NCBI RefSeq assembly: GCF_030013595.1
Contig: NZ_CP122768.1
Reading direction: 5' to 3' (one strand)
Origin: Escherichia coli
GTDB lineage: Bacteria; Pseudomonadota; Gammaproteobacteria; Enterobacterales; Enterobacteriaceae
DNA length: 64,000 nucleotides
The notes under the pieces: model-generated
Database searches by the model: none
The model's input: only the letters and a program-made list of their open reading frames with translations
What the model was told of the DNA's origin: nothing
Made by a program: the position numbers and the translations under genes
Shown here: one piece after another, positions 40,078 to 40,392 of the stretch
Position numbering within the stretch: position 1 is the first letter of the stretch
Layout of the letters: every line of letters begins with the position of its first letter

Positions 40078-40099
40078 ATCGTATTCCCATTTGTAATAG

Positions 40100-40148
40100 A
40101 CAAAAAAAGAGAAAAGTAAGCCGCCCTTTCAGGTGGATTACTTTTCTC
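40100..40148 (-). terminator. Leader hairpin + U7 tract 22 nt upstream of yqcE start (candidate attenuator/antitermination target)
   Basis: On minus strand: gagaaaagtaa-(18-nt loop)-ttacttttctc followed by ttttttt, then 22 nt to ATG. Confidence 0.5.
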
Positions 40149-40251
40149 AGGTCTCTAGTAATTGCAATAAGAAATAACATGGAAAGTAGTGGTGTTGTGT
40201 GAGAGTAATCACGCTTCTGCTTTTTAAAATTATTTGACAATTCGAATATCA

Positions 40252-40273
40252 CACTGTGATTACGATCACATTA
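40252..40273. promoter_or_regulatory. CRP binding site (cacTGTGAttacgaTCACAtta) in yqcE/ygcW divergent region
   Basis: Both consensus half-sites TGTGA and TCACA with 6-bp spacer; TTGACA hexamer at 40234-40239 nearby. Confidence 0.55.
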
Positions 40274-40321
40274 GCGATTATGCCCTTATGATAAAAATTA
40301 TCTCCAGTTACCAGAGATAAT

Positions 40322-40368
40322 GAGAAAGGTAACTTCCCTCTCGCGGGGGAAGTTACCTTTCTTTTTTT
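40322..40368 (+). terminator. Leader hairpin + U7 tract 24 nt upstream of ygcW start (candidate attenuator/antitermination target)
   Basis: gaaaggtaacttccc-(8-nt loop)-gggaagttacctttc perfect 15-bp stem, then ttttttt, then RBS and ATG at 40393. Confidence 0.6.
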
Positions 40369-40392
40369 GCCTTACGGAAATTGGAGCTAACT

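Follow-up and report, generated by a model that had tools for sequence, protein, structure and literature searches.

The spacer that separates the divergent yqcE-ygcE and ygcWUSRQ operons of Escherichia coli raises a simple question: why should each operon be preceded by a strong transcription terminator placed a short distance ahead of its first start codon? The locus belongs to the ygc/yqc island. Of the catabolic clusters of E. coli K-12 that await characterisation this is one of the larger, and it also encodes YgcP, a protein of the GlpP family that has been named by homology alone. GlpP-dependent antitermination has so far been shown only in Bacillus, and the literature searched has nothing on ygc gene regulation beyond a binding site for CRP. 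We analysed a stretch of 64,000 nucleotides (nt) of contig NZ_CP122768.1 (assembly GCF_030013595.1), referred to here as the window, which is 100% identical to strain 755 and 96–99% identical to about 5,000 other complete E. coli genomes. Our answer, to which we assign a probability of roughly 70%, is that the two leaders are conserved premature terminators equipped with an antiterminator box and are likely RNA targets of YgcP; the binding of YgcP and the regulated read-through are the parts that we infer. Relative to the literature searched, what is new is the recognition of the E. coli leaders and about 100 homologues as likely GlpP-family targets, together with the antiterminator helix, the GAG-GAG loop, the paired CRP-site architecture and the YgcP subfamily that are described below.

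Two leader terminators and their 3′ ends in vivo

The first hairpin (hairpin A) occupies 40148..40109 of the minus strand, with arms GAGAAAAGTAA...TTACTTTTCTC and an inner stem CC.CCU/GGG.GG, and is followed by seven T residues (40108..40102) and then by 24 nt to the yqcE ATG at 40077. Its folding energy is −21.8 kcal/mol (z = −4.3), a stability that none of 200 shuffled sequences attained. Hairpin B, on the plus strand at 40322-40363, comprises 19 pairs and is succeeded by a T run ending at 40368; 24 nt then separate this run from the ygcW ATG at 40393. The hairpin folds with −31.0 kcal/mol (z = −6.9 against shuffles), and it was the top match in a terminator scan of 16 kb. The spacer core between the two hairpins spans 40149-40321 (173 bp). 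When the 64-kb window was searched, zero-mismatch occurrences of GAGAAARGTAA proved to be confined to the 5′ arms of these two hairpins. Each operon thereby has the layout of a GlpP-type target, namely an intrinsic terminator in the 5′ untranslated region (UTR) between the promoter and the first gene.

The two hairpins, both T7 runs, the shared GAGAAA(A/G)GTAA arm and a CRP site had been pointed out in an initial annotation of this DNA, and all are present at the places given there. Other details of that description need revision. The distance to the start codon, put at 22–24 nt, is 24 nt on both sides, and the statement that the run consists of exactly seven U residues holds for the strain of the window and fails elsewhere: the runs measure 8 and 9 in K-12 and range from 6 to 9 across 85 distinct leaders.

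That transcription ends in these leaders in vivo can be read from published Term-seq data for MG1655 grown in lysogeny broth (LB) to an optical density of 0.4 (Adams et al. 2021, supplementary file 3). A 3′ end at 2900311(-), 38 nt upstream of ygcW, is represented by 40,640 reads and has a Rho score of 0.50 (not Rho-dependent) and an intrinsic-terminator score of 15.8, while a second end at 2900556(+), 36 nt upstream of yqcE, has 1,557 reads, a Rho score of 0.61 ('No') and an intrinsic-terminator score of 11.4. Both were classed as 'orphan', and neither is discussed in the main text of that study (Adams et al. 2021); the leader model accounts for the two of them. When placed on the MG1655 sequence, both ends fall inside the hairpin 3′ arms, 4–5 nt ahead of the U runs, which suggests that the terminated RNAs are trimmed by exonuclease into the A-U-rich stem base, or processed. 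Since the ends map to both hairpins, short terminated leader transcripts exist, and the Rho-independent 3′ ends in both K-12 leaders thus agree with what the initial annotation had envisaged.

The antiterminator box and its distribution

A conserved box of the general form (G/A)TTACY lies 5–13 nt upstream of each hairpin, just past the predicted transcription start. It reads AGTTACC before E. coli ygcW, ATTACT before E. coli yqcE, GTTACT in Serratia and Vibrio, and GTTGCT in Listeria and Bacillus. An invariant GAG comes after the box, and a few nucleotides further on a second invariant GAG opens the terminator arm at the base of the stem. Mid-way in the 5′ arm of the terminator is a segment RGTAAY to which the box is complementary, so that the box and the 3′ arm compete for it.

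In the ygcW leader RNA (40305..40368, plus strand) the box AGTTACC at 40306-40312 is followed by the loop AGAGATAATGAGAAA, the terminator stem at 40322-40363 and the U run to 40368. Its GAG triplets occupy 40314-40316 and 40322-40324, and the antiterminator helix is formed by 40306-40312 paired with 40328-40334. The yqcE leader RNA (40102..40164, minus strand) is built likewise of the box ATTACT (40162..40157), the loop AGAGACCTGAGAAA, the terminator stem (40148..40109) and the U run (40108..40102), and 40162..40157 and 40142..40137 make up its antiterminator helix. An 8-bp inverted repeat, ATTATCTC ... GAGATAAT at 40297-40321 of the window, flanks the ygcW box and predicted start; it is not conserved outside Escherichia and could be a DNA operator or a product of chance.

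The helix between box and arm has left a clear trace in the alignment of the 85 distinct leaders, where 93.6% of the cells of the seven-pair helix are paired, against 14–54% when the partner segment is slid. Pair 3-33 is GC in 60 leaders and AU in 24, and pair 8-28 is UA in 61 and CG in 20. Among 34 phylogenetically spread leaders, five of the seven pairs have changed on both sides (93.7% of cells paired), and the count of double changes was reached by one of 500 shuffles. An alternative antiterminator helix that overlaps the terminator is thus supported by compensatory changes. The lower terminator stem is itself 92.9% paired and contains many G-U pairs (at pair 30-60, for example, 46 are U-G), which fits an RNA structure of the sense strand and not a DNA palindrome.

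If the RNAs are cut before the 3′ arm to mimic a nascent transcript, nearly all of the 19 leaders tested adopt the box:arm hairpin as their minimum-energy fold, with energies of −1.4 to −8.8 kcal/mol (−6.7 kcal/mol for ygcW and −1.4 kcal/mol for yqcE). The full terminators, at −18 to −40 kcal/mol, are far stronger. The default would therefore be termination, and a factor would be needed to hold the antiterminator. A pairing of AGAGA with the U run, which was seen in full-length folds, was set aside as generic A/U complementarity.

To follow the leader beyond E. coli, YgcP was used as bait and 64 loci were taken from one-genome-per-species contigs. About 60 species, ranging from Escherichia to Vibrio, Listeria, Bacillus and Clostridium, have a leader of about 65 nt ahead of the orthologous operons. 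A ygcP-like gene (PF04309), through which the loci had been retrieved, adjoins it in all loci fetched, across phyla. The genes ygcP, ygcW, ygcU, yqcE and ygcE are syntenic throughout Enterobacterales, and the same cluster is syntenic in Listeria, Bacillus sp. DNRA2, Thalassobacillus, Vibrio hannami, Clostridium sediminicola and Fodinisporobacter. Complete enterobacterial loci have exactly two leaders each, both in the ygcW/yqcE spacer, and in Enterobacterales and Vibrio alike the two are arranged divergently. The leader hairpins are kept in every orthologous locus, with covariation, as the initial annotation would have them. On a much shorter timescale, all 14 of the 14 single-nucleotide polymorphism columns found among six E. 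coli strains fall at 40165-40291, and the transcribed leaders contain none except for the length of the U run.

A covariance model built from the 85 distinct leaders matches the ygcW leader with 74.9 bits and the yqcE leader with 73.5 bits, and a scan of the 64-kb window with it returned no further copy beyond these two. The model also finds matches ahead of operons for a short-chain dehydrogenase/reductase (SDR), a kinase or a flavin adenine dinucleotide (FAD) oxidase in the Vibrio, Clostridium, Fodinisporobacter, Thalassobacillus, Listeria and Bacillus loci, and weaker matches before glpD-like dehydrogenase genes that adjoin GlpP-like genes in two metagenome-assembled genomes (MAGs) of Clostridia. 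About 100 sequences are now at hand for a new cis-regulatory RNA family across Proteobacteria and Firmicutes.

Some spacers have been remodelled. In Limnobaculum eriocheiris (L037 13859-13978) the ygcW-yqcE spacer measures only 132 nt, the two leaders are merged into a single hairpin between A9 and T9, and the whole promoter core is gone; this looks like the outcome of recombination between two inverted leaders. An ERIC-like repeat (enterobacterial repetitive intergenic consensus) of about 127 nt lies between the yqcE leader terminator and the start codon in Citrobacter youngae (L015 ~16330-16470), and the same insertion is found before yqcE in Klebsiella spallanzanii (L016 ~12680-12815).

Promoters, YgcP and the proposed switch

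Each of the two promoters appears to have a CRP site of its own at a class II-like distance. CRP site 1 at 40255..40270, TGTGAttacgaTCACA, is perfect and would serve the ygcW promoter, its centre lying about 42–44 nt upstream of the predicted start. It was predicted in 2007 (PMC1794230), coincides with a peak in chromatin immunoprecipitation sequencing of enterotoxigenic E. coli (PMC4287617) and is bound in vitro with a dissociation constant of 1.7 nM (PMC12871828). CRP site 2 at 40198..40213, TGTGAgagtaaTCACg, would serve the yqcE promoter and is positionally conserved; the literature searched names only the site at 40255-40270, and not this one. In all 49 enterobacterial spacers a CRP-like site with at most two half-site mismatches is found 43.5–45.5 nt upstream of the ygcW box, and another with at most one half-site mismatch 42.5–44.5 nt upstream of the yqcE box (again 49/49). 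These distances are fixed although the inter-leader core varies from 125 to 333 bp in the same spacers. One transcriptome study lists yqcE-ygcE as Crp-activated, and the binding of CRP and H-NS/RpoD in the ygcW/yqcE spacer is documented.

The predicted extended −10 elements are TGaTAAAAA at 40289..40297 (plus strand) for ygcW, with a start expected at about 40304-40306, and TGtTATTTC at 40171..40179 (minus strand) for yqcE, with a start at about 40165-40163. Of 92 distinct promoter contexts, 85 have the motif TGnTA at 16–18 nt upstream of the box. This spacing would therefore place the start 1–2 nt ahead of the box and make the box the very 5′ end of the RNA, and the canonical Listeria promoter TTGACT-17-TATACT predicts the same placement. 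Promoter predictions published on the basis of RpoD SELEX (systematic evolution of ligands by exponential enrichment), TTGACA-16-TGTGAT for ygcW and TTCTCA-18-GATAAT for yqcE, were set aside; unlike the TGnTA and CRP sites, their position relative to the leaders is not conserved.

The proposed controlled operons are yqcE-ygcE (37295..40077, minus strand), which encodes a major facilitator superfamily (MFS) transporter and an FGGY-family kinase, and ygcWUSRQ (40393..45746, plus strand), which encodes the KduD-like SDR YgcW, the GlcD-like FAD oxidase YgcU, the MFS transporter YgcS, and YgcR and YgcQ (electron transfer flavoprotein). Past ygcQ the gene order is ygcP-ygcO-ygcN on the minus strand. 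The ygcP gene (45893..46468, minus strand), 5.5 kb from the leaders, is proposed to encode the trans-acting antiterminator on the grounds of Pfam and PDB matches and synteny. Its product carries PF04309 (G3P_antiterm), matches PDB entries 3KTS, the GlpP of Listeria monocytogenes (E = 1e-27), and 1VKF (8e-15), and shares 31% identity with GlpP from the glpP-glpFK-glpD locus of P. megaterium. When E. coli is compared with Citrobacter, Klebsiella or Raoultella, YgcP proves 96–97% identical and the flanking YgcQ, YgcR, YgcN and YgcO of the same loci just 57–78%, which points to an unusually strong constraint on the regulator. On the far side of the yqcE-ygcE operon, between queE and ygcE (window 36323-36716), lies a CRISPR (clustered regularly interspaced short palindromic repeats) array with the E. 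coli type I-E repeat GAGTTCCCCGCGCCAGCGGGGATAAACCG; the same array is labelled CRISPR in the record of strain 755, where a frameshifted cas3 and a Hok/Gef gene are found further downstream.

The leaders that canonical GlpP acts upon offer a direct comparison, for which the B. subtilis glpD leader and the P. megaterium glpP-glpFK-glpD locus were used. In B. subtilis, GlpP together with glycerol-3-phosphate brings about read-through of the leader terminators of glpD, glpFK and glpTQ (PMC9604022, PMC10573289, PMC7430163); antitermination at glpD requires GlpP, and the glpD leader is an experimentally validated target (PMC9604022). The glpD 5′ UTR has the form GGTCC-TGAGA-TGAG-GAGAGACC...GGTCTC-T run, printed as ...AACGGTCC TGAGA TGAG GAGAGACCACAGC...GTGGTCTC TTTTT (PMC9604022). 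A box GGTC comes first, then a GAGA, four nucleotides and another GAGA, and the terminator arm contains GACC, to which the box is complementary. In P. megaterium, the leaders of glpFK and glpD likewise have a box, GAGA, N4, GAGA and a box complement in the terminator arm, and the glpD-like leaders of the two Clostridia MAGs match this order with TTGC/GCAA and GTTTC/GAAAC as box and complement. The E. coli leaders thus appear to share the architecture and the double-GAGA signature of a validated GlpP target, and the box helix, whose sequence differs from family to family, can itself be read as covariation.

Canonical glp leaders obtain only a weak score with the ygc covariance model (16 bits, E = 0.15), and Listeria grandensis (L061, L077) has a canonical GlpP next to mutL as well as a YgcP-like paralogue with a leader of its own, which implies two non-cross-talking GlpP-type systems in one cell. 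From this weak score and this coexistence it follows that the YgcP-type systems are a distinct subfamily, presumably with RNA and ligand specificities of their own. We would go further only tentatively, and with somewhat more doubt than confidence, in suggesting that YgcP-type proteins and GTTACY-GAG-GAG leaders constitute an RNA-protein switch in its own right, widely transferred and responsive to some phosphorylated metabolite that is not glycerol-3-phosphate. If so, it would be a second protein-dependent catabolic antitermination class in E. coli besides BglG, previously unrecognised, and its leader a new cis-regulatory RNA family absent from Rfam, whose terminated products might also act as small RNAs.

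Taken together, the conserved hairpins with their covariation, the Term-seq ends, the co-occurrence with ygcP and the likeness to the glpD leader support the suggestion of the initial annotation that these are antitermination-controlled leaders; its picture of the terminators stands, and what it missed are the second CRP site, the conserved box with its antiterminator helix and the variation of the U run. The switch may be envisaged as follows. CRP-cAMP would activate both divergent promoters, each of which combines an extended −10 element with a CRP site at a class II-like distance. The RNA would start with a leader of about 65 nt whose default fold is a strong intrinsic terminator, so that most transcripts would end about 25–30 nt before the start codon. 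Its first 6–7 nt, the box, could pair with the middle of the 5′ arm and close a purine-rich loop of 14–15 nt that holds the two GAG triplets; this weak antiterminator hairpin would form transiently once the box, the GAG...GAG loop and the 5′ arm have been transcribed. Without inducer, the 3′ arm would displace the box, the terminator would form and transcription would stop at the U run, giving rise to the RNAs seen by Term-seq. Inducer-loaded YgcP would bind the nascent GAG...GAG loop and the helix, including the GAG at the base of the terminator stem, and this would lock the hairpin and block the terminator, allowing RNA polymerase to read into yqcE-ygcE and ygcWUSRQ. The inducer is probably a phosphorylated product of the YgcE kinase, perhaps a polyol or sugar acid in phosphorylated form, rather than glycerol-3-phosphate, to judge from the non-glycerol gene content of the island and the coexistence with canonical GlpP in Listeria. 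In this way the annotation of YgcP becomes a concrete regulatory model with a testable box, and leader read-through offers a route to the substrate of the island.

Alternative explanations and known antitermination systems

Could the hairpins simply be constitutive elements? They might be noise-damping or insulating leaky terminators, or 5′ stem-loops that stabilise the mRNA, in which case control would be exerted by CRP and H-NS only. Their strength as intrinsic terminators and the documented binding of CRP and H-NS/RpoD in the spacer would suit such a role. However, it would leave unexplained the invariant GAG triplets and the box that covaries with the arm, and equally the association with a GlpP-family gene across phyla; we hold it to be unlikely.

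The terminated leaders of about 55–60 nt might also be two divergent trans-acting small RNAs, possibly besides a control in cis. The ygcW leader end is indeed abundant in LB, its 40,640 reads being comparable to those of known leader-derived RNAs in the same table. Yet conservation tracks the cis architecture, that is the position before operons, the antiterminator and, in E. coli, the 24-nt distance to the start codon, and the element precedes different operons in different phyla. A trans-acting function is accordingly a decidedly unlikely explanation of the leaders.

A third possibility dispenses with the protein: the leaders would be riboswitch-like attenuators in which a small molecule stabilises the box/GAG-loop hairpin, and YgcP would act elsewhere. 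The antiterminator/terminator switch, conserved with covariation, is compatible with this, and YgcP binding is deduced. The sensor, however, would consist of no more than a 6-7-bp helix and a loop of 14–18 nt, a very small size for an aptamer, and the leaders have no Rfam match: a scan with Rfam 15 gave chance-level matches only, at no more than 25 bits and far below the gathering scores (a scan of the canonical P. megaterium glp leaders gave no match). Moreover, a PF04309 gene lies beside the leader in every locus fetched, and the GAGA-N4-GAGA layout recurs in the glpD leader, where antitermination needs GlpP (PMC9604022). We rate a protein-independent attenuator as very unlikely.

It is highly improbable that the palindromes work at the level of DNA, as operators bound by a regulatory protein, or that they are what is left of a mobile element with inverted ends. 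The hairpins are indeed inverted copies of a similar sequence around the 173-bp core and have recombined into one in L037. Yet many stem positions are kept by G-U pairs, which the opposite strand would show as A-C mismatches; the T runs lie on the sense side throughout, with RNA 3′ ends mapping there; a transposase is absent; and the element is single-copy (median one place per E. coli genome).

No rival jointly explains the covarying box, the invariant GAG triplets, the strand-specific G-U pairs and the PF04309 association. Two established modes of leader control were rejected as well. The consensus of the ribonucleic antiterminator (RAT) of BglG/SacY, GGnTTGTTACTGn5GCAGGCAAAACC, has no match in the window at up to three mismatches. 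Attenuation by a leader peptide of the trp/his type would draw on an ATG at 40320, which is present in 42 of the 85 leaders and replaced by AAG, CTG, CAG, ACG, AGG or TGG in the others; by inspection, no Shine-Dalgarno sequence was seen upstream of it in the E. coli leaders.

Several considerations nonetheless weigh against antitermination by YgcP. The transcription starts are predicted from promoter motifs only, and a start downstream of the box would preclude the antiterminator. The yqcE antiterminator is very weak at −1.4 kcal/mol, and the compensatory changes stem from few independent events among related sequences. The Term-seq ends lie in the stems and not in the U runs, and may be trimmed or processed ends. 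As every related locus was retrieved via a ygcP-like gene, the survey is evidence that these genes have leaders, and not evidence that leaders are never found apart from them. The likeness to validated GlpP targets lies in architecture and short motifs, not in overall sequence, and the binding of YgcP to the leader RNA, like the dependence of read-through on it, is a proposal.

Among the systems to which control by YgcP may be compared, BglG and its RAT are the classical protein-dependent catabolic antitermination system of E. coli. Like the bgl leader and those governed by SacY and LicT, the ygc leaders belong to catabolic genes and have a terminator whose 5′ arm overlaps a weak antiterminator that is, or in the ygc case would be, stabilised by protein, and both the RAT and the ygc leaders contain a UGUUACU-like sequence. 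The proteins differ, being CAT-PRD proteins under the control of the phosphotransferase system there and a PF04309 protein here. HutP of the B. subtilis hut operon is a small ligand-activated protein that binds spaced NAG triplets and blocks a terminator (PMC2425495, PMC7430163). The two invariant GAG triplets of the ygc leader recall the spaced triplets of the hut leader, whereas the protein fold is unrelated and the hut leader is without a box:arm helix.

The closest parallel is with the B. subtilis glycerol regulon. In both cases the gene for a PF04309 protein neighbours those under control, the promoter is followed directly by a short leader with an intrinsic terminator, an upstream box is complementary to the terminator 5′ arm with GAGA-N3-4-GAGA in between, and carbon-catabolite control of the promoters is placed on top. 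The differences concern the genes, the box and the form of catabolite control: the ygc operons encode an SDR, an FGGY kinase, an FAD oxidase with an electron transfer flavoprotein and MFS transporters, and no glycerol genes; the ygc box is GTTACY/RGTAAC where the glp box is GGTC/GACC; and the leaders of Enterobacterales have class II-like CRP sites where Bacillus has CcpA control. The comparison bears on RNA recognition by GlpP-family proteins in general, which may make use of a shared GAGA-N4-GAGA loop closed by a variable helix.

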